From Candidatus Nomurabacteria bacterium GW2011_GWD2_36_14 (GTDB lineage: Bacteria; Patescibacteriota; Minisyncoccia; Phycocordibacterales; UBA9973): DNA of 64,000 nucleotides. The notes under the pieces were generated by a model, which worked only from the letters and a program-made list of their open reading frames with translations, was not told the DNA's origin and ran no database searches. The stretch spans positions 379,200 to 443,199 of the forward strand of contig LBRL01000001.1 in the NCBI GenBank assembly GCA_000991405.1. Direction: 5' to 3'. The translations under genes and the position numbers were made by a program. Shown in pieces: positions 1-27,579 of the stretch. Position 1 is the first letter of the stretch. Each line of letters begins with the position of its first letter.

Positions 1-121
1 CAATCGAATTGTGTTATCAGCCATAACAGGATCCTCATGCCCTGAAAATGACGTATCTGAGTAAGGCAATGAAGGGTCTATCAATTCAGAACCCTGTGAT
101 TCGAAAGAGTTTGCAGGGTTT

Positions 122-1798
122 TTATATTACTTCATTCTGATAACACTTCTCACAATACACAATTTCAGGTCTATATGGAGCATATGAAGTTTCGAATTCA
201 TTTGTACACCCTTCTTTCATACACGACCGGTACCAGAGCTTATTGGGACCCCGAGATTTCATCCTTCTGTAATGTCTACAATCTGGGCAAAGTCTTGGAA
301 GAGGTACATTTAACTTTTTATAAAACAAAAATTCATTCGGTATTACCCTGTAATTCTTATTACAGGACTCACATATAAATACTTCTTTTGCAACATCAAA
401 ATCTATCTCCGAGAAACTTTCTGGCATTTGGTCTACTTTCTTGGTTTCTTTATTATAAGTCCCCCTTTCTGTATCTTCCCACCTAGAACCTTGTTTTATT
501 GCTTCATCTTTAGATAATGGAAATTGTTCATTTGCTGGGGTCTCGTTGTATCCAAAGCAAGATAAATGCTTGCCGAAGAATTGTCCATATTCTCCCTTAT
601 CTTTTAATTCACTTTTTATTTTACTTACAATTTCTTCATATTCTTCTTTCTCATATTGTTTATTTAAAATACAATAATTCTTTTTTCTCATTCCTACACA
701 CCCAAAACAATTGTTTGAATTAAAACAATACATTGAATACTCTACAAAAGAACAAGTCCAGCAAAGTGCATCACAAACCAGATTTGAATTATCAATACCT
801 GCGTTTATAGAGTTATATATACGTGAGACATTCCTACCTGCAGTATCGCAATCCATCGTGTCTTTGGCATTTCTCCATATATGTACTCCATACTTATTAT
901 CTTCTGCATCATAACAATGGAAACACGACTGACAATTCTTGGTATTCTTCATGTATGAACCAGTTGAATTAACCACTTGCATCACTTCCGCAAATTTACG
1001 AGGTTGCTTCTTTAGAAAATCTTCATACTTTTCTTTAAACATTTTAACCCCAGAATAAGTATCAAGCATTAAATCTTTCTTTATTTGTTCGTACTCTTCT
1101 TTGCTATATGACTCATTGAAAATATAATTACTTTTATTTCGTAAATTGATACAACCAATACAATCTGTGCAACCCTTACAATCAGTCAAAAAGTAACTCG
1201 TTGTACAATCATGACACCCTTTACTATATAAAAGTTTATAAGAATTGTAACAATCATCAGACTCATAAGTAAGCTCGCATTTTGAAGCAAAAGAAGTATC
1301 CACTACATCTCTGCACTCCTGAATCCAATATGAATGTATTGAATCTTCGTTGTTTGATGATTCTATAATGAAATAGCAATTCTTATTGTCGGCTGAAATA
1401 TTCGTATATTCACTGCCTGGACTACGCATATAAATAAGAGAAACCTTCGGAACAGATCTCCAAAGTTTTTCATATTGTTCAAAAAATGGAATATCTTTAT
1501 CATATTCAATTCCAAAATCTTCCCCTCCCCAATTGTCACTAAACCAACAATCGTAACACCAGACTTTAAAAGATTTATTGGGCGAATACATAGATACGAC
1601 ATCTTTTCCACATTTATCACAAGCTCTTTTATAGAAAGCTCTTTCATTACGAAAACTTAAACGTAATTGTGCTCTACAATCTGGACATGTATCAGGAGCA
1701 CATACTCTCATCTTCTCATAGAAAGAGAAATCATCCGGCTCAATAGTGAAGTCTTTCTTACAATTCTGACAATTCCTTTTTTCTTCTTTGTGTTCCAT
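122..1798 (-). CDS. Cysteine-rich multi-zinc-ribbon repeat protein (paralog A), function unknown
   Basis: 558 aa ORF with no signal peptide. Both termini carry a CxxC...CPDCR zinc-ribbon-like motif (F-x-I-x3-E-x2-F-Y-x-K-[ML]-x-V-P-x-P-x2-C-P-x-C-R). Internal repeated modules C-x-DC-x-GC-x-NLRNKSNYIFN-x-Y-x-KEEY and CFGCVGMRKKNYCILNKQYEKEEY. Clear paralog of the next ORF. Confidence 0.6.
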   Translation of the reverse strand: MEHKEEKRNCQNCKKDFTIEPDDFSFYEKMRVCAPDTCPDCRAQLRLSFRNERAFYKRACDKCGKDVVSMYSPNKSFKVWCYDCWFSDNWGGEDFGIEYDKDIPFFEQYEKLWRSVPKVSLIYMRSPGSEYTNISADNKNCYFIIESSNNEDSIHSYWIQECRDVVDTSFASKCELTYESDDCYNSYKLLYSKGCHDCTTSYFLTDCKGCTDCIGCINLRNKSNYIFNESYSKEEYEQIKKDLMLDTYSGVKMFKEKYEDFLKKQPRKFAEVMQVVNSTGSYMKNTKNCQSCFHCYDAEDNKYGVHIWRNAKDTMDCDTAGRNVSRIYNSINAGIDNSNLVCDALCWTCSFVEYSMYCFNSNNCFGCVGMRKKNYCILNKQYEKEEYEEIVSKIKSELKDKGEYGQFFGKHLSCFGYNETPANEQFPLSKDEAIKQGSRWEDTERGTYNKETKKVDQMPESFSEIDFDVAKEVFICESCNKNYRVIPNEFLFYKKLNVPLPRLCPDCRHYRRMKSRGPNKLWYRSCMKEGCTNEFETSYAPYRPEIVYCEKCYQNEVI

Positions 1799-1832
1799 TT
1801 TTTTACTAGTTACTAGAACCTAATCACTAATT

Positions 1833-3572
1833 CTATAATATCTCTCTCTTGTAACAATCATCACAGTATAAATTCCACCCATCCTTTGAATCATACGTCG
1901 TTATAATACTCTTTTCACACATATTACAAATACTACTATTCATTCTATAATCCCCCAAGTATTTATATCGATCTTTAATTCTTTTTATTTGATGAATATC
2001 AGGAAGAGGAATACTATGAATTCTATAAAATTCTAACTCCGATTCTGTAATGCGGAATGGTTTTCCTGTTTCTTTACACACAAGTGCTTTGGTAAGGATA
2101 TCATCTTCTACGTCATCAATATTGTCAGGAATATCTTCTGTTTTTACTAAATCCATACCCACTGCATTTGATTCAGTCTCTATTTGCCAAAGTCCGCCAA
2201 TTTTCTCTACTTCTTCTTTGCTCAACGGAAATACAAAATCAGAAGTTGATCCATTGTATGCATAAGTACTAAAAGGTAACGAGAAAAAATCTCCGTATTC
2301 TCCCTTTCGTAATAATGATGATTTAATTTTATCTAATTCTTTATAATATTCTTCCTTTTCATATTGACGATTAAAAATACAGTAATTCTTATTGTCTAAA
2401 CCAACACAAGCAAAACAATTATTTATATTCCTACAATTAATCAAAAGCTCTGATTCAGTAATAAACTTCGAAGCAAAGGAGAACTTCACGTTTGATGACT
2501 TGGACCCGACCGCAATGGTACTATAAAGTCTTTCAGATCCACCAGAAACTGCAGCGTCCATGGAATCATGATTTGCAATGACATTATCACAGTGTAAAAC
2601 GTGTGTTGATTTTACAGTGTCAAAAACATCATGACAATCTTTTGAATCTGAAATATTTGTTCCAGACACATTATTTACTCGCTCATGTCTCTCTGCTCTA
2701 ACTGGTTGTAATTTCACAAATTTCCAAAATTCTTCACTAATCTCTTTTATGGACTTTCTACTTTTTAAGTTTATATCTGAGATCTGTTTTCGATACTCTT
2801 CTTTGGTATATTGAACATTAAATATACAATTACTTTTATTTCTAAGATTCACACAACCAAAACAGTCAGTACAATTGTTGCAATCATACAGAAAGTTAGA
2901 GTCTATGCAGTTATCTGAGAAATATAAATATTTAGAGTTATAACATTTCTCACAAGAGACTATCTCATATGAATTCTCTCCAAAATGAACGAGTAACGAA
3001 TCCATAACATTACGAGAATCGTTCACAGTATTGCAATACCAAAGATTCTCTGAATTCCACCCTCCACTTACATAATACCCATTCTTTAAATTTCTACCAT
3101 TTATAGAATACTCACTGTTTATACTAGATGGATCTCGAATAATAGCAGGTTGAGGAACTCTCAATCTCAAATCCCAAAATTGATCTAAAAAAGTTTTTGA
3201 TTCATCATAAAAAGTTCCATAAGTATTTGAGTCAAAATTTTTAATATAACTATCTAAATCATAAACTATTAGTGGAGAAACTGGTGGTACAAAAGAAATT
3301 ATTTTACCCTCTTTTCCGGGAGCATTATTGTCTCTTTTGTATAAATTTATTGAGTTCACGAAAGCATAACGATTCATCCTCCTACATGTCGGACAATAGT
3401 TCGGTGTAGGTACCCGAAGCATTTTCAGGAATTCAATATCTTCCTTAGTTATATCAAATTCCCCTTCACAGTACTTGTGCTCTCCTTGCCACTTACATAC
3501 ACGCTTATGAGGCACCAAACTTTCAAATATCTTATCCAGAAGTGCATCAAATTGTGGGGTTTTTGTTTCCAT
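1833..3572 (-). CDS. Cysteine-rich multi-zinc-ribbon repeat protein (paralog B), function unknown
   Basis: 579 aa. Shares with 122..1798 the N-terminal F-x-I-x3-E-x2-F-[LY]-K-M-x-V-P-x-P-x2-CP-x-CR motif and the modules CNNCTDCFGCVNLRNKSNCIFNVQYTKEEY and CFACVGLDNKNYCIFNRQYEKEEY. The C-terminal ribbon is degenerate. Confidence 0.6.
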   Translation of the reverse strand: METKTPQFDALLDKIFESLVPHKRVCKWQGEHKYCEGEFDITKEDIEFLKMLRVPTPNYCPTCRRMNRYAFVNSINLYKRDNNAPGKEGKIISFVPPVSPLIVYDLDSYIKNFDSNTYGTFYDESKTFLDQFWDLRLRVPQPAIIRDPSSINSEYSINGRNLKNGYYVSGGWNSENLWYCNTVNDSRNVMDSLLVHFGENSYEIVSCEKCYNSKYLYFSDNCIDSNFLYDCNNCTDCFGCVNLRNKSNCIFNVQYTKEEYRKQISDINLKSRKSIKEISEEFWKFVKLQPVRAERHERVNNVSGTNISDSKDCHDVFDTVKSTHVLHCDNVIANHDSMDAAVSGGSERLYSTIAVGSKSSNVKFSFASKFITESELLINCRNINNCFACVGLDNKNYCIFNRQYEKEEYYKELDKIKSSLLRKGEYGDFFSLPFSTYAYNGSTSDFVFPLSKEEVEKIGGLWQIETESNAVGMDLVKTEDIPDNIDDVEDDILTKALVCKETGKPFRITESELEFYRIHSIPLPDIHQIKRIKDRYKYLGDYRMNSSICNMCEKSIITTYDSKDGWNLYCDDCYKREIL

Positions 3573-3617
3573 TGTTTTAATCTAGCCACTAGAACCTAGT
3601 TACTAGAAACTAATCTT

Positions 3618-5333
3618 CTACATCCTATCTGGTACTTCTATACCCAGAAGCCATAGGCCATTCTTCATAGTTTGTACAAATGCTTTTATAAGATTTAAGT
3701 GATAAGCCATATATTTGTTTTCATCTACAAGTATTTGAGTATTCCCATAGAAAGTATTGAAACTACTTGCAAGCTCTATCAGATAAGTCGCTATGTGATG
3801 AGGCTGTAATGTCTCGTATGAATACTTCACAATCTCATGGAATTGATACAACATTTTTTCTAAATCTGTAATCTCTGTTGGTATTTCATCCTTACCTTCA
3901 GTATTTAAATCTTTTGCTTTATTTAAGATAGAATTCGCACGCACAGAAGTATATTGCAAATATGGCCCTGAATCTCCTTCAAAAGAAATAGATTTCTCTG
4001 AATCATATATAATGTCACTACCTAAAGATGATCTAAGTATTGAATATTTCAGAGCTGAAACACCTACAATTTCAGAAATTCGGGTTTTTTCTTCTTCGGA
4101 AATTTTACTGTCCTTCATTTTCTCTTTAACAATATCCATTGAATCTCTCAATAGAGATTCGCCCGTAATTACATTTCCTTTCCTCGAAGACATTTTACCA
4201 TCAGCAAAACGCATCATGCCGTGTGTCACATGCTTCATTTTTGATTCTAAATCAGGATGAATAAGAGATATCGCCTTCTGAACCACTTTCATATACTCTC
4301 CCTGCTCTATGGCTGTTGTTGTAATTGATATATCTGGATTCTCTTTCTCAAACTTTGTAAGTGCGAGACCTATCTCTTTTGTTTCATAAGTAGGTAAACC
4401 TTGTGAATTTATAAATACACGAGTATGAAGTTTCTTGTCATAATTTTCCCCATGGAATACTATAGCACCATCTGATTCACTAAAAACTTTTGGAGCATTT
4501 GCTCGGACAATCTCCTCTCCAATAGGAGCCATCTCACTTTCAAAAAAGTAATACTCAAATTTTGTTCCTAAAATTTTATATATCTCCTCAAATGCATCAA
4601 GGGTTTCTTTTCTCCCCCAATCATAAATTTCATTTATCTTTGGATCACTTTTATCGTAAATCTTTTTATTTATCTCATCAATTTCTTTCTTAGCTTCTAT
4701 CCCCTTTGGGTGTAAAGATTCATATAATGTAGCTCCTAGAGAGTAGCATTCGCCTATCCAAAGAGCATTTTTACCTTCCATTTTTTCTCCAGAGTGTATT
4801 ATCCCCCAAATAGCCTTCGCTACATGTGGACCAACATCACCCTGATAATTTGCTCTTATAGTTTTTGCACCAGAAAATTCTACAACTCTAGAAATTGATT
4901 CACCAATTGCATTTGCCATTAAGTGACCTATGTGAAAAGGTTTAAAAGGATTTGGATCAGTGTATTCAACCATCACCTTCTTCCCTGATAGTAAGCTATT
5001 CTTCCCCCATTCCTCTCCTTTATTTAAAATTTCTTTTACACTCTCAGTGAAAAATTCTCGTGATAAATAGAAATTTATAAATCCTGGGCCAGCTACTTCT
5101 ATCTTTTCTATTCCACCGAAGCCTTGCTTCGGTAAACCCTTTAATTCTAAGACTATTTTTTCAGCTAATTCTTTTGGATTAATTTTCTGTTGTTTAGCAC
5201 ATACCATAGCTACGTTCGCAGAATAATCCCCATTCTTAAAATCAGTTGGATGTTCAACAGAAAAAGAAACATCTTCATGAATTCCAAGATTTTTCAAAGC
5301 TTCTTTTATTTGTTTTTGTATTTTATCTTTCAT
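3618..5333 (-). CDS. argS: Arginine--tRNA ligase
   Basis: 571 aa with the class I HIGH motif (PFHIGHLMANAIGESISR) and a KMSK-like KMSSRKG. Length and architecture are typical of ArgRS. Confidence 0.9.
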   Translation of the reverse strand: MKDKIQKQIKEALKNLGIHEDVSFSVEHPTDFKNGDYSANVAMVCAKQQKINPKELAEKIVLELKGLPKQGFGGIEKIEVAGPGFINFYLSREFFTESVKEILNKGEEWGKNSLLSGKKVMVEYTDPNPFKPFHIGHLMANAIGESISRVVEFSGAKTIRANYQGDVGPHVAKAIWGIIHSGEKMEGKNALWIGECYSLGATLYESLHPKGIEAKKEIDEINKKIYDKSDPKINEIYDWGRKETLDAFEEIYKILGTKFEYYFFESEMAPIGEEIVRANAPKVFSESDGAIVFHGENYDKKLHTRVFINSQGLPTYETKEIGLALTKFEKENPDISITTTAIEQGEYMKVVQKAISLIHPDLESKMKHVTHGMMRFADGKMSSRKGNVITGESLLRDSMDIVKEKMKDSKISEEEKTRISEIVGVSALKYSILRSSLGSDIIYDSEKSISFEGDSGPYLQYTSVRANSILNKAKDLNTEGKDEIPTEITDLEKMLYQFHEIVKYSYETLQPHHIATYLIELASSFNTFYGNTQILVDENKYMAYHLNLIKAFVQTMKNGLWLLGIEVPDRM

Positions 5334-5352
5334 TTACTTTATAACTTTCTAC

Positions 5353-5775
5353 TTACTTCCTTCCAGTTGATCCAAAAGCCCCTTCCCCTCTATCTGACTC
5401 ACTCAATGTATCAGTTTCCTCCAACTCTGCAATAACCACTGGCACAATAACTAGTTGCGACACTTTGTCCCCCTCTTCTACAGTATATGGCTCACTTCCA
5501 AGATTTACAAGGTGAGTATTGTATTCACCTCTATATCCAGCATCAAACACTCCTCCCATATGTATCAACCCAGCCTTAGAAATACTAGACTTATCCATCA
5601 CAATTGCCGCATTCCCAACTGGGAACTCCATAGCAAAACCATGGAAGAATCTATAATGCTCCATGGGCTTGATGGTCACAGTCTCCATAGCATACAAGTC
5701 CATCCCCACATCCCCTGGGTGAGCATACTTGGGCAACTTGGCATTCTCTTTTAATTTTTTAATTTTAATATGCAT
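5353..5775 (-). CDS. dut: dUTP diphosphatase (dUTPase family; possibly dCTP/dUTP)
   Basis: 140 aa with dUTPase motifs: GVFDAGYRGEY (motif III) and C-terminal RGEGAFGSTGRK (motif V). Motif II is KSS instead of RSG. Confidence 0.8.
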   Translation of the reverse strand: MHIKIKKLKENAKLPKYAHPGDVGMDLYAMETVTIKPMEHYRFFHGFAMEFPVGNAAIVMDKSSISKAGLIHMGGVFDAGYRGEYNTHLVNLGSEPYTVEEGDKVSQLVIVPVVIAELEETDTLSESDRGEGAFGSTGRK

Positions 5776-5781
5776 ACTTTG

Positions 5782-6033
5782 TTAACACTTATAACCATTA
5801 CTAATCATATCATCAATTCCTCCACCATTTTTTACATTTTTAAATCCATTTTGCTCCATCATAGACTTGGCTATCGTTGCTCTGCTTCCTGATTCACAAT
5901 ATAAAATTATTTCTTCATCTTTTGGAATTTCAGGAAACTTGCCATACATCATATCCATAATATCGAAAAGTTCTGCATCCTTTATATGCCCATCGTCATA
6001 CTCTTCTTTTGTCCTTACATCTATAATTCTCAT
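5782..6033 (-). CDS. Single-domain rhodanese-like sulfurtransferase
   Basis: 83 aa. The active-site loop YCESGSRA carries the Cys. Typical small rhodanese. Confidence 0.65.
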   Translation of the reverse strand: MRIIDVRTKEEYDDGHIKDAELFDIMDMMYGKFPEIPKDEEIILYCESGSRATIAKSMMEQNGFKNVKNGGGIDDMISNGYKC

Positions 6034-6034
6034 A

Positions 6035-6739
6035 TTATTTTAATACCCTCCTTACCTCTTTATAAACCATATCATGTATTTGCTCACGAGAAAGTATTTC
6101 ACCTTTCTCTGAGCAACTTATTTTACTCCAGTTCGGTTGAGTCTTCGCAAGCCAGAGTGCGCTCTTGATAGAATTCTCCATAAACTTCTCGTCAGCTTCA
6201 TGTACATCTTTGTTCTTCTTTAGATACTTTCTCTTCATCTGACTACTTTCTCTATCATTGAGAAGCTTCATTACAATCTGTATTGGTAAACTTAAATACA
6301 AAGTTAGATCAGGCTTAGGAATACCAAATTCTTCATACTCCATCTGATTGAGCCACTTTATGAAATTATTTCGCTTTCTCGTATCACTTATTTTGCCACC
6401 TTGATGAATCTGATTAGCAGAAACGTAACGATTGGCTACTACTATGTATCCTTCTTTGAGCCACTTTTCCATTTCAGTTTTTGACTGCCATCTGTCTGCG
6501 GCAAAAAGTACGGAAGCAATCTTCGGATGAACATTTATGAAGTTATAGTATTGCTCAGAAAGACAATGCCCAACAAAAGCTCCAAAGAAATTCTTGTAAT
6601 ACTCAGGAAAGTCCACAACCTTTACTTTATATCCGTCTTTTTTAAGTCTGTCAGTGAGATAATTTACTTGTGTAGCCTTTCCACTTCCATCTGTCCCGTC
6701 TATTACGATAAGCTTGCCTTTAGTTTTTTGTTTTTTCAT
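6035..6739 (-). CDS. tmk: Thymidylate (dNMP) kinase family protein
   Basis: P-loop VIDGTDGSGKATQ, a DRY-like motif NRYVSANQIHQGG (E. coli DRHDLSTQAYQGG) and the LID-adjacent PDLTLYLSL (E. coli PDLTLYLDV). It has a C-terminal extension compared with E. coli Tmk. Confidence 0.75.
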   Translation of the reverse strand: MKKQKTKGKLIVIDGTDGSGKATQVNYLTDRLKKDGYKVKVVDFPEYYKNFFGAFVGHCLSEQYYNFINVHPKIASVLFAADRWQSKTEMEKWLKEGYIVVANRYVSANQIHQGGKISDTRKRNNFIKWLNQMEYEEFGIPKPDLTLYLSLPIQIVMKLLNDRESSQMKRKYLKKNKDVHEADEKFMENSIKSALWLAKTQPNWSKISCSEKGEILSREQIHDMVYKEVRRVLK

Positions 6740-6803
6740 AAGATAACCTCAATTATACCTAAAAATTACCCTATATCAAAATCCATTAAATATATACTAA
6801 TTT

Positions 6804-6845
6804 AAAATGACACAATCTCTGCTATAGCAGAGATTGTGTCATTTT
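6804..6845. promoter_or_regulatory. Perfect 19-bp-arm palindrome (AAAATGACACAATCTCTGC-TATA-GCAGAGATTGTGTCATTTT) in the divergent tmk / PaaX-like intergenic region; candidate operator
   Basis: Read directly from the sequence. It lies between divergently transcribed genes, so it is not needed as a terminator. Confidence 0.5.
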
Positions 6846-6863
6846 AATATTTAAGTTATAATT

Positions 6864-7346
6864 ATGTATATGTCTATCGTAAGTGAAATTTTAGAAGAAC
6901 TTTGGAATACAGAACTCAACTATAAGGGAGTTAGGGTTAATCTTTTTGGTATTCCCAGATTTAGTAAATATCCACAAAGAAGTATCCGAACAACAATGGA
7001 CCGATTAAAAAAGAAAGGGATTATAGAAAAAGAGTTGGCTGGAATAGTGCTTTCTAAATACGGGAAAGAATATGTGAAAAGAAAATATGATTCACTTAAG
7101 CAATTTGAAAATCCGGGAAATCTGTCTAAGGATAGAACTTTACTTGTGATGTTTGATATACCGACAGAGAAGAAATCTCATAGAGAATGGCTACGCTGGC
7201 ATTTGAAAAGGTTTAATTATGTTATGGTTCAGAAAAGCGCATGGGTAGGACCCTACCCTCTCCCAAAGGGATTCAATGAATACTTAAAAAGAATAAAACT
7301 AGATAAATGCATAAAAACTTTTAAATTAGATAAACCTTATAAGTAA
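6864..7346 (+). CDS. PaaX-like transcriptional regulator (wHTH plus Cas2-like PaaX effector domain)
   Basis: The N-terminal QRSIRTTMDRLKKKGIIEKE resembles the PaaX wHTH recognition helix and wing (TVRTALSRLVRDGWLE). The second half, LLVMFDIPTEKKSHREWLRWHLKRFNYVMVQKSAWVGPYP, matches the PaaX core motif (sVPE..R..Rd.lR..L.w.GFG.l...vW..P.P). It also resembles the Cas2 beta1-alpha1-beta2 pattern. Confidence 0.5.
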   Translation: MYMSIVSEILEELWNTELNYKGVRVNLFGIPRFSKYPQRSIRTTMDRLKKKGIIEKELAGIVLSKYGKEYVKRKYDSLKQFENPGNLSKDRTLLVMFDIPTEKKSHREWLRWHLKRFNYVMVQKSAWVGPYPLPKGFNEYLKRIKLDKCIKTFKLDKPYK

Positions 7347-7444: not shown

Positions 7445-7876
7445 TTATTCTTTGTCGTAAAAGTTTTTGCCAGTTTTGTATGAATCAATAATTAATTCAC
7501 TTGGATAAAAAAGAGGTGAAGGTAGATTGTCTAATGAGTACCAATTCCACTCTCCTATTTTCTCATGATCATATGTTTTTGGTTCATTCTCTTTCCAATC
7601 AGCAAAAAGTCCGATCAAAATATCTTGACGATTTTCATGTCTACAATATGTAGAAGTAGAAAGATATTTAATATTTTCAATTTTAATTCCTGATTCTTCT
7701 AATGTTTCCCTTGTAGCACAATCTACAAAAGATTCTTGAAACTCTAAGTGCCCTCCTGGCATCGAGTACTCTCCCTGACCATGACTTCCCTTTCTTTTAC
7801 CAAGAAGAATCTTGCCTTCTTTCCAGATCATTACACCTACACATGGTTTTAATTTATGTCTTTCTCCTTCTACCAT
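7445..7876 (-). CDS. NUDIX hydrolase
   Basis: Nudix box GGHLEFQESFVDCATRETLEESGI (GX5EX7REUXEEXGU). Confidence 0.8.
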   Translation of the reverse strand: MVEGERHKLKPCVGVMIWKEGKILLGKRKGSHGQGEYSMPGGHLEFQESFVDCATRETLEESGIKIENIKYLSTSTYCRHENRQDILIGLFADWKENEPKTYDHEKIGEWNWYSLDNLPSPLFYPSELIIDSYKTGKNFYDKE

Positions 7877-11901: not shown

Positions 11902-11938
11902 AAAAATCTCCGCTAGGTTTTGCCTAGCGGAGATTTTT
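11902..11938. terminator. REP-like hairpin / bidirectional terminator (AAAAATCTCCGCTAGG-TTTTG-CCTAGCGGAGATTTTT)
   Basis: Perfect 16-bp stem between convergent folA (+) and a MazG-like gene (-). It belongs to a hairpin family that recurs at 25705 and 27539. Confidence 0.6.
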
Positions 11939-25704: not shown

Positions 25705-25746
25705 ACCAAAATCTCCGCTAGGCCTTGCCTAGGGGGAATCCCCCCC
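25705..25746. repeat. Degenerate copy of the REP-like hairpin element (ACCAAAATCTCCGCTAGGCCTTGCCTAG...)
   Basis: The first 28 nt are identical to the 27539..27579 element. The 3' arm is replaced by GGGGGAATCCCCCC. Confidence 0.45.
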
Positions 25747-27538: not shown

Positions 27539-27579
27539 ACCAAAATCTCCGCTAGGCCTTGCCTAGCGGAGATTTTGGT
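27539..27579. repeat. REP-like hairpin element / terminator (ACCAAAATCTCCGCTAGG-CCTTG-CCTAGCGGAGATTTTGGT)
   Basis: Perfect 18-bp stem. It is the same core as the 11902..11938 hairpin. Confidence 0.6.

Follow-up and report, generated by a model that had tools for sequence, protein, structure and literature searches.

What are the two long, cysteine-rich proteins encoded side by side at the beginning of a 64,000-nucleotide stretch of the genome of Candidatus Nomurabacteria bacterium GW2011_GWD2_36_14 (contig LBRL01000001.1, positions 379,200 to 443,199), and with what do they work? We call this whole stretch the window and the two genes, both on its minus strand, A (122..1798, encoding 558 amino acids, aa) and B (1833..3572, 579 aa). 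The pair is not a two-gene curiosity, but part of a multigene family with thousands of members. Profile comparison and structure prediction give good support to a single compact fold for each protein, in which two terminal zinc modules (Z) enclose two internal cysteine-rich modules (M), i.e., a Z-M-M-Z layout. We propose, with a probability of roughly 0.4, that these proteins are zinc-stabilised scaffolds or adaptors that work with orphan VirD4-like ATPases, a reading built on comparisons of sequences and gene neighbourhoods.

Architecture of the A and B proteins

A and B are 33% identical over their full length (BLASTP, E 9e-93). The distinctive architecture that a preliminary description of this DNA had seen in both genes is confirmed by their open reading frames (ORFs), by BLASTP, and by alignments of the modules within each protein. 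Comparison with hhalign of profile slices from a 52-sequence alignment revealed two internal duplications and thus the Z-M-M-Z layout: the N-terminal zinc module (residues 6-87 of A) matches the C-terminal one (472-555; P 99.6%, E 3.6e-24), and the first M module (M1, 134-245) matches the second (M2, 282-396; P 99.8%, E 3.7e-29). Each M module is a cysteine-rich segment of about 110 aa that ends in a ...GC-x-NLRNK...KEEY motif and a helix. An AlphaFold2 model made with 150 sequences has a mean predicted local distance difference test (pLDDT) of 88.4 and a predicted template modelling score (pTM) of 0.89, by which the arrangement of the domains is defined; pLDDT is 86-98 in M2 and 60-75 in M1. 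An earlier model from 52 sequences left the M modules poorly defined.

Protein A has all four terminal zinc sites. Its N-terminal zinc module (1538..1783) holds site N1 (C10, C13, C38, C41), a treble clef resembling zf_Tbcl with the motif F-x-I...FY...CPxCR, and site N2 (C60, C63, C81, C84), a CxxC-x17-CxxC finger that reads CDKC-x17-CYDC. The homologous C-terminal module (134..385) holds site C1 (C476, C479, C504, C507) and site C2 (C526, C531, C549, C552; C-x4-C-x17-CEKC), the latter similar to LIM and zf_Tbcl_2 fingers. Between them, M1 (1064..1399) ends in C207-x2-C210-x2-C213-x2-C216, followed by NLRNK...KEEY and the helix, and its homologue M2 (611..955) ends in CFGCVGMRKKNYCILNKQYEKEEY and a helix. 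B is a divergent paralogue with a 22-aa N-terminal extension and, like the B-type proteins in general, is devoid of N2 and C1. Its N-terminal zinc module (3258..3497, about residues 26-105, mapped from the pairwise alignment with A) retains only N1, as C-x8-C ... CPTCR, and its C-terminal module (1845..2090, about residues 495-576) has a degenerate C1 and an intact C2 (CNMC-x17-CDDC). M1 of B (2766..3107, about residues 156-269) ends in DCNNCTDCFGCVNLRNKSNCIFNVQYTKEEY and M2 (2319..2657, about residues 306-418) in NCFACVGLDNKNYCIFNRQYEKEEY. All these features are on the minus strand.

These maps refine what had been claimed of the motifs. Zinc ribbons at both ends were described for the two proteins, and this is fully the case for A, where CPDCR occurs at residues 38-42 and again at 504-508; B, however, lacks two of the sites and has its CPTCR at the N-terminus only, the C-terminal counterpart being degenerate (PDIHQIKR). 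The repeated internal modules carry the expected motifs (CTDCIGCINLRNKSNYIFNESYSKEEY in A and CTDCFGCVNLRNKSNCIFNVQYTKEEY in B for the first), but the NLRNKSN...KEEY linker, said to be identical, is only similar, and its second copy has diverged (CFGCVGMRKKNYCILNKQYEKEEY, also read as GMRKKNYCILNKQYEKEEY, in A; CFACVGLDNKNYCIFNRQYEKEEY in B).

Across the 150 sequences, the cysteines of N1, C2, and the M1 CxxCxxCxxC cluster are at least 90% conserved in all three clades. Cysteine accounts for 4-7% of the residues (median 34 per protein), and the proteins are acidic to neutral (median isoelectric point, pI, 6.1; A 5.8, B 5.5). The C-terminus is conserved to its last residue, and conserved acidic or aromatic positions occur in M1 (E151, D167, Y178) and M2 (D313, D316, Y328). 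The family alignments contain no invariant histidine, and A and B match no Pfam enzyme family. Both N-termini (MEHKEEKRNCQNC... and METKTPQFDALLDK...) are hydrophilic; the reported lack of a signal peptide agrees with the absence of any hydrophobic N-terminal stretch in A or B, judged by inspection and not with a dedicated predictor. One member from the representative search, P0366 (731 aa), carries a GNAT acetyltransferase domain (residues 42-124) ahead of a complete family protein, either as a true fusion or because two genes were merged in gene calling.

Terminal modules of probable zinc-finger type

The preliminary description recognised no characterised family in these proteins, and our searches lead to the same result: Pfam, NCBIfam, PHROGs, PADLOC, the sequences of the PDB, and Foldseek returned only zinc fingers and a weak beta-helix resemblance. 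Among them was no confident match to a radical SAM, ferredoxin, or adhesin family, the kinds of match that had been named beforehand as contrary to the claim. Nothing beyond the zinc-finger modules matched A or B in Pfam, NCBIfam, PHROGs, and PADLOC; the PDB yielded nothing below E 0.06 with single sequences and only a LIM-like finger with the profile. We disregarded, as noise, the matches with E 0.0015-0.5 to SH3_14, Lip_prot_lig_C, RNase P component 3, and phrog_15341. We found no description of the family in the literature.

The relation of the fingers to known families emerges from the orthologues. The window's own A and B do not match zf_Tbcl (PF13451) at E <= 1; the A orthologues P0022, P0029, and P0059 match it with 24.8-25.1 bits over residues 3-46 (gathering score 24 bits), the stretch above the cut-off in A orthologues being residues 9-44. 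Of the 52 aligned members, 14 match this profile. The motif C10-x2-C13...F17...FY...C38-P-x-C41-R is invariant in the aligned members. For zf_Tbcl_2 (PF23477), the match of B is faint (residues 544-576, 10.5 bits) and that of its orthologue P0201 reaches 27.9 bits over residues 547-579, with a cut-off for PF23477/TIGR04272 of 27 or 36 bits; 15 of the 52 members match. LIM (PF00412) matches five of the 52 at E <= 0.01. N2 of A and C2 of B have exactly 17 residues between the CxxC pairs, and small CxxC-x17-CxxC proteins have been found experimentally to bind zinc, by inductively coupled plasma mass spectrometry (PMC12704099). The identification of the termini as zinc fingers, a zf_Tbcl-type treble clef followed by a CxxC-x17-CxxC finger, is thus well supported, and their occupancy by zinc is presumed.

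The internal modules as a candidate metal-capped solenoid

In the AlphaFold2 model the M modules consist of short strands only. The strands are spaced by six residues, as in hexapeptide repeats, but Fourier analysis argues against these: hydrophobic residues recur mainly every 12 positions, in M1 as well as in M2, and in M1 they are Y142, I154, V166, Y178, L190, Y202, I214, and I226. A Foldseek search of the PDB gave no significant match, with 110 at E <= 10; among the 50 matches listed, nearly all are beta-helix proteins (gamma-carbonic anhydrases, LpxA/D, GlmU, DapD, PglD). All have E >= 0.05, low TM-scores, and a root-mean-square deviation (RMSD) of about 10 Å. We infer from the model and the period that the M module is a narrow beta-solenoid of 12-residue coils, whose last coil has a cysteine at every third position, such that four thiols could surround one metal. 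Because the A/B proteins are predicted to be cytoplasmic, zinc or thiols are likelier than disulfides. No Pfam family covers the module and no relative of it has a solved structure; its own structure would be likely to establish a new beta-solenoid repeat with a metal cap.

A large family of Patescibacteria

A profile search of 1.84 billion representatives, clustered at 50% identity, matched 5,479 clusters at E <= 1e-3, of which 2,218 also passed E <= 1e-30; lengths among the top 150 range from 450 to 730 aa, with nearly all at 530-600. A search with A gave more than 6,443 matches among the 8,000 candidates scored. In species-representative genomes there are at least 580 matches, mostly labelled Patescibacteria or unclassified ("uncultured bacterium"). 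Two carry proteobacterial labels, "Burkholderiales" (locus L020) and "Gammaproteobacteria" (L058), and are probably mis-binned contigs of metagenome-assembled genomes (MAGs): L020 has its full gene order in common with the Nomurabacteria locus L021, and L058 is a 2.2-kb contig holding the family gene alone. The family is very large and multigene, predicted to be cytoplasmic, and dominated by Patescibacteria (Paceibacteria and relatives), a distribution that is well supported. An origin from phages is ruled out by tblastn, which found no match in 50,697 phage records, and by IMG/VR, which yielded one partial match at a contig edge; in BFVD, the matches are limited to isolated zinc-ribbon proteins.

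We scanned 83 fetched loci with a hidden Markov model of the family. At least two copies are present in 50 of them, all 77 adjacent pairs are co-oriented, and same-strand arrays contain 2-7 copies, up to seven in a 13-kb locus. The window contains only A and B, and its 800,830-bp scaffold at least six copies, with four more at 20.5-42.2 kb (L085). In L085, one copy lies between thioredoxin-like/DsbB genes and a pilB-pilC-pilin cluster, and two tandem copies lie upstream of a gene for class II ribonucleotide reductase. In another locus (L029; about 2430-2640, 4150-4360, and 7580-7790), three tandem paralogues have a near-identical block of about 240 nt. This block takes in the tail of the gene ahead, the hairpin of the spacer (TTTTTCACG-TGG-CGTGAAAAA), and 120 nt at the start of the coding sequence; outside it the DNA of these genes is only about 30-40% identical. 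This suggests either a mosaic made by gene conversion or an artefact of MAG assembly. In a genome of about 0.8 Mb, this one family thus takes up at least six genes of about 1.7 kb each, which is more than 1% of the coding capacity, and A-type proteins keep about 60% identity across candidate phyla. Such an investment in a streamlined genome suggests an important lineage-specific role. Genomes of the candidate phyla radiation (CPR) do hold many uncharacterised families.

The relation between A and B is an old one. Protein A is 100% identical to "hypothetical protein A2467_01355" of Candidatus Nomurabacteria bacterium RIFOXYC2_FULL_36_8 and has orthologues with 58-88% identity in Jorgensenbacteria, Minisyncoccia, and other Patescibacteria; B has a separate set (44-88%) in different candidate phyla. 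Since each has its own orthologues across candidate phyla, A and B are, judged from these sequence sets, ancient paralogues and not the result of a local duplication. The idea that one gene arose from the other recently, by a duplication that included the promoter, is ruled out by these separate sets and by the distribution of the upstream element that had suggested it (see below). In one distant genome (L002, 6187-9761), a VirD4-like ATPase gene comes first, then another family member, and after it the B orthologue.

Most other members form a "cloud" of paralogues with 35-45% identity to A and 30-35% to B, and the conservation of the modules depends on which sequences are compared. Within the A orthologues, M1 and M2 are the best-conserved parts (column entropy 0.81 and 0.97 bits). 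Among the cloud paralogues, no structured parts vary more than these two modules (1.89 and 1.95 bits), and only helix-1 and the interdomain linker segments have higher values. The zinc modules and the module ends (201-220, 361-380, 401-420) are conserved throughout. Conserved termini and module ends together with variable solenoids form the pattern expected of a common scaffold or docking apparatus with paralogue-specific binding surfaces.

Association with VirD4-like ATPases

To describe the neighbourhoods, we clustered the non-family ORFs of the loci and scanned their representatives against Pfam and NCBIfam. The commonest neighbour is a P-loop ATPase similar to VirD4/TraD/TrwB/HerA, found in 24 of the 83 loci (31 genes in about 0.95 Mb). 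These ATPases have no transmembrane segment, and their relatives include VirD4/TraD/CedD-like DNA translocases. Two types can be told apart. Type 1 (about 490 aa) usually adjoins dnaJ. Type 2 (600-870 aa) has a zf_Tbcl_2/TIGR04272 finger (48-54 bits) after the ATPase domain; eight of the 11 finger-bearing genes lie directly upstream of a family array, and the C2 profile of the family matches the finger with E 2e-8 to 2e-4. DnaJ occurs in 12 loci. A 196-aa protein with six transmembrane segments and CutA1 also recur, and the other neighbours are housekeeping genes.

A 2025 survey (PMC12102498) counts 5,713 homologues of VirD4-type coupling proteins of type IV secretion (T4CP) in 2,918 Patescibacteria genomes, about two per genome. 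Only 148 of the 5,713 are near virB4, and their role is left open there. Relative to about two per genome, a rough base rate taken from the literature and obtained with different detection criteria, such ATPases are enriched about 15-fold at the family loci. We conclude that the association of the family with VirD4-like ATPases that share its finger is well supported at the level of the locus. We dropped direct adjacency of ATPase and family genes as a statistic, because shuffling the gene order within loci gives an almost equal count.

A scaffold or adaptor, and the alternatives

What might such proteins do? In the reading that we favour, the A/B proteins would have no enzymatic activity and would serve as zinc-stabilised scaffolds or adaptors. 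Their terminal fingers and module ends, common to all paralogues, would be docking sites, either for one another or for a shared partner, and the solenoid faces would probably bind paralogue-specific partners, as these faces are strongly conserved within an orthologue group and very different between paralogues. The likeliest shared partner would be the VirD4/TraD-like hexameric ATPase, orphan and soluble, that is found repeatedly at the family loci, with DnaJ as a frequent third neighbour. B, in which a finger is missing from each end (N2 and C1), would most simply be a specialised or hetero-oligomerising subunit.

A bolder version, which we think possible although doubtful, makes the family the missing partners of the roughly two orphan VirD4-like ATPases of each Patescibacteria genome, in a hitherto unrecognised, CPR-specific, ATP-driven system assisted by DnaJ. 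Arrays of metal-plugged, 12-residue beta-solenoids, each with a different surface, would be the adaptors or cargoes of this system, and a soluble coupling-type ATPase would load or move them by means of the shared CxxC-x17-CxxC finger. If this is true, the system might serve the episymbiotic lifestyle, e.g., host interaction or the uptake of macromolecules; with its four-cysteine coil, the solenoid would also add a novel kind of repeat fold, one stabilised by metal. In any case, the VirD4-like neighbourhood offers a handle on what thousands of T4CP homologues away from any type IV secretion system (T4SS) do in these bacteria.

Several observations weigh against the scaffold or adaptor role. 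The direct adjacency of ATPase and family genes (22) is not above the mean of the within-locus shuffle (18.2), which limits the enrichment to the level of the locus, and the enrichment itself depends on a literature base rate with other detection criteria. Neither the window nor the second family locus of this genome has such an ATPase, and about 70% of the loci have none within 6 kb. A and B are not an obligate adjacent pair, as two related loci (L004 and L006) keep A without B. M1 is modelled with moderate confidence only (pLDDT 60-75). The conserved E/D/Y positions could mark a ligand-binding or catalytic site instead of having a purely structural role, and, since the identity of the metal is inferred, the CxxCxxCxxC of M1 could bind an iron-sulfur (Fe-S) cluster instead of zinc.

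Much of the same evidence can be turned towards other roles. The proteins could be cargo, i.e., effectors translocated by a Patescibacteria T4SS, with the arrays as diversified substrates devoid of Sec signals; VirD4-like ATPases would then recognise the C-terminal zinc module, and DnaJ would keep the substrates competent for secretion. We hold this to be unlikely, even if the missing signal peptide, the tandem arrays with divergent bodies and conserved termini, the mosaic of L029 with its resemblance to gene conversion, the T4CP-like ATPases and DnaJ at the loci, and the C-terminus conserved to its last residue all suit it, as does the account, in PMC12102498, of Patescibacteria T4SS that have no relaxases and are thought to be non-conjugative. 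The neighbouring ATPases lack the transmembrane segment, and no virB4 or channel gene is among the annotated neighbours. Moreover, A orthologues with about 60% identity across phyla, whose solenoid surface is the best-conserved part, do not resemble fast-evolving effectors, and tightly folded multi-zinc proteins would make poor T4SS substrates. The neighbours can also be seen in another light, with VirD4/TraD/CedD-like relatives of DNA translocases among them: the terminal zinc ribbons might grip DNA or RNA beside DNA-pumping ATPases of the FtsK/VirD4 type, and the proteins would then take part in the uptake or processing of DNA or act on transcription or RNA. Zinc-ribbon and treble-clef classes are frequent in nucleic-acid-binding proteins, some members carry the Joint Genome Institute (JGI) label "Zn ribbon nucleic-acid-binding protein", and one copy of this genome adjoins pilB-pilC-pilin. 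However, the acidic to neutral pI values argue against contact with nucleic acids, the fingers are most like zf_Tbcl and LIM, the latter known for protein-protein contacts, and the proteins have no helix-turn-helix, OB, or nuclease domain, which together make this role an improbable one.

The remaining explanations have even lower probabilities. An enzyme or redox protein, be it similar to beta-helix acyltransferases or gamma-carbonic anhydrases or an Fe-S protein that uses CxxCxxCxxC, is brought to mind by the best, if weak, fold matches (hexapeptide acyltransferases and gamma-carbonic anhydrases), by the invariant CxxCxxCxxC cluster, by the E/D/Y positions conserved in both M modules, and by the GNAT fusion of P0366. 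The poor scores and large deviations of those fold matches, a period of 12 and not of 6 or 18, the absence of Hexapep, Fer4, and radical SAM matches in Pfam at E <= 1, the lack of a conserved histidine, and cysteine spacings unlike those of ferredoxins and radical SAM proteins render it quite improbable. We give very little credence to an accessory factor of translation or of aminoacyl-tRNA synthetases, as the place of the genes between argS and leuS might suggest. The order argS-B-A-leuS is kept in L005 and L017, argS-A-leuS in L004 and L006, and other copies are near tgt, frr, rsmE, and a gene for a class-II aminoacyl-tRNA synthetase; yet this synteny is confined to close Nomurabacteria relatives, A- and B-type genes elsewhere have quite different contexts, and such neighbours are expected by chance because translation genes are a large share of tiny genomes. 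Multi-copy arrays also misfit a single housekeeping cofactor. Finally, a buffer of metal or thiols, for zinc storage or protection from redox and metal stress, would account for the high cysteine content and for the genes for CutA1, DnaJ, thioredoxin-like proteins, and DsbB adjacent at some loci. Storage needs neither the length, nor the architecture, nor the many highly conserved non-cysteine positions, nor the paralogue-specific solenoid surfaces of these proteins, and many cysteine positions of the solenoids vary, so that a buffer, too, is a very remote explanation.

Operon context and intergenic elements

The gene argS, for arginyl-tRNA synthetase (3618..5333, minus strand), is directly upstream of B in the same orientation. 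The spacers are short, 45 nt between argS and B and 34 nt between B and A. The pair had been placed directly upstream of argS; all three genes being on the minus strand, it is in fact downstream. Further upstream on this strand are genes that we take, from their translations, to be dut, a rhodanese-like gene, and tmk. The apparent gene string is tmk-rhodanese-dut-argS-B-A, and the A/B pair is probably co-transcribed with argS, in the argS operon. A sigma-70-like site with 11 of 12 matches precedes tmk (6779-6752), in a promoter scan whose number of sites did not exceed the chance expectation. Past A, the source scaffold continues with leuS. B is missing from the locus in the close relatives L004 and L006, and both genes are kept in L005 and L017. 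The leuS downstream of A (L087, 5172-7677) encodes a leucyl-tRNA synthetase of about 1,200 aa with an unusual insertion: a His_Phos_1 domain lies between two tRNA-synt_1 matches, in addition to DUF5915 (Pfam).

The two spacers share the element that had been taken for a promoter. In the argS-B spacer it forms a CTAG-rich dyad or hairpin on the minus strand (3581..3607; UCUAGU-A-ACUAG-GUU-CUAGU-G-GCUAGA), the densest CTAG cluster in the window, and a second copy with the same hairpin shape lies in the B-A spacer (1805..1831, minus strand). The exact 11-mer ACTAGAACCTA occurs twice in the 64 kb, once per spacer (at 1812 and 3588), and the copies share 20 of 21 nt in one register, GATTAG[T/G]TTCTAGTAACTAG on the coding strand. 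Each folds into a hairpin of 6 bp, a bulge, and 5 bp with a GUU loop, which is no more stable than those of shuffled sequence. The 21-nt element is absent at the closest orthologous loci, L004-L006, where the B-A spacer of L005 is only 12 nt long. Its core, YTAGGTTCTAG, is present at 8-9 independent positions between genes in about 1 Mb of related loci, against about one expected, and is conserved in several Nomurabacteria/Paceibacteria genomes. These positions include L002 (6127 and 9766; upstream of dnaJ in this locus), L006 (2172-2203, upstream of an 83-aa gene within the tmk-argS operon), L062 (2776), and L017 (4267, between argS and the B orthologue); the core is absent at the other four family copies of this genome. 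Each gene does have its own upstream copy, as had been noted. Yet, since the core also precedes unrelated genes and is absent at the other four copies, the element is a short, lineage-wide intergenic element (operator, RNA element, or miniature repeat), and no promoter was copied with the gene.

Other hairpins occur nearby. One (90..120, minus strand; AACCCUG...CAGGGUU) lies just past the stop codon of A and may mark the end of the transcript; it has no T-run and is not significant relative to shuffled sequences. A perfect hairpin with a 20-bp stem (6802-6847), between the divergent tmk operon and a gene at 6864-7346, is probably a bidirectional terminator. An Rfam scan of positions 1-7000 found no RNA family in the spacers and only sub-threshold matches at this 6.8-kb hairpin, to the BSnc120 small RNA on both strands (29.8 bits, where the gathering score is 114). 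Elsewhere in the window, a 29-nt palindrome with a 12-bp stem, ATCTCCGCTAGGnnTTGCCTAGCGGAGAT, is present at 11906-11934, 25711-25739, and 27545-27573, two copies being exact and the third having three mismatches, where chance predicts none; it is probably a bidirectional terminator or a repeat akin to repetitive extragenic palindromic (REP) sequences.

Comparison with known systems

Several familiar systems can be set apart from the family. Secreted or surface variable-protein families have an N-terminal signal peptide or membrane anchor, and none was seen in A and B by inspection. The PADLOC profiles of anti-phage defence do not match A or B at E <= 0.1, and only the neighbouring ATPases show a generic P-loop similarity to HerA/mad8. 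Fer4 and Radical_SAM match neither protein in Pfam or NCBIfam, with no Pfam match at E <= 1, and the ferredoxin CxxCxxCxxxCP and the radical SAM CxxxCxxC are spaced unlike the C-x2-C-x2-C-x2-C of the family.

The M modules would have more in common with left-handed beta-helix transferases and gamma-carbonic anhydrases, which are likewise built of short-strand coils with ladders of asparagine, cysteine, and hydrophobic residues. However, these proteins have 18 residues per turn against 12 in the M modules, no Hexapep match was found at E <= 1, and the A/B family lacks the catalytic residues at the trimer interface. The 12-residue period and cysteine-rich coils bear a putative likeness to the narrow antifreeze solenoid of the insect Tenebrio. 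Unlike these proteins, each M solenoid is capped by a cysteine cluster and a helix.

The closest relatives of the terminal modules would be zf_Tbcl and zf_Tbcl_2 (PF13451, PF23477, TIGR04272), the fingers that they most resemble; any family membership is supported at this domain level only, and the window's own A and B score below the Pfam cut-offs. These families are single domains of about 40 aa and cover less than 15% of the 560-580 aa proteins, whereas a paired finger module at both termini is specific to the A/B family. LIM domains (CRP1, muscle LIM protein) are also double zinc-finger modules, and the C2 segment (...C-x2-C-x17-C-x2-C, with a YCxxCY ending) aligns to the second LIM finger of CRP1 (E 7e-4). 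The best PF00412 match has 17.1 bits (P0022, residues 504-556) against a threshold of 22.9, and LIM domains are eukaryotic; the first finger of the family is a zf_Tbcl-type treble clef with an FY helix and without the LIM histidine ligand. LIM domains act as protein-protein adaptors, the role that we propose for the A/B family.

As for the putative partners, the orphan VirD4-type T4CP homologues are described in PMC12102498 from Patescibacteria, in several copies per genome and mostly away from virB4; its passages on VirD4/T4CP homologues name no partner family for them, and zinc is not mentioned there. They are P-loop ATPases with no homology to A and B beyond the finger, but they recur beside the A/B family, and one type shares its CxxC-x17-CxxC finger. 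The A/B proteins are thus built from known kinds of parts, and what these parts do together is possibly a new function.

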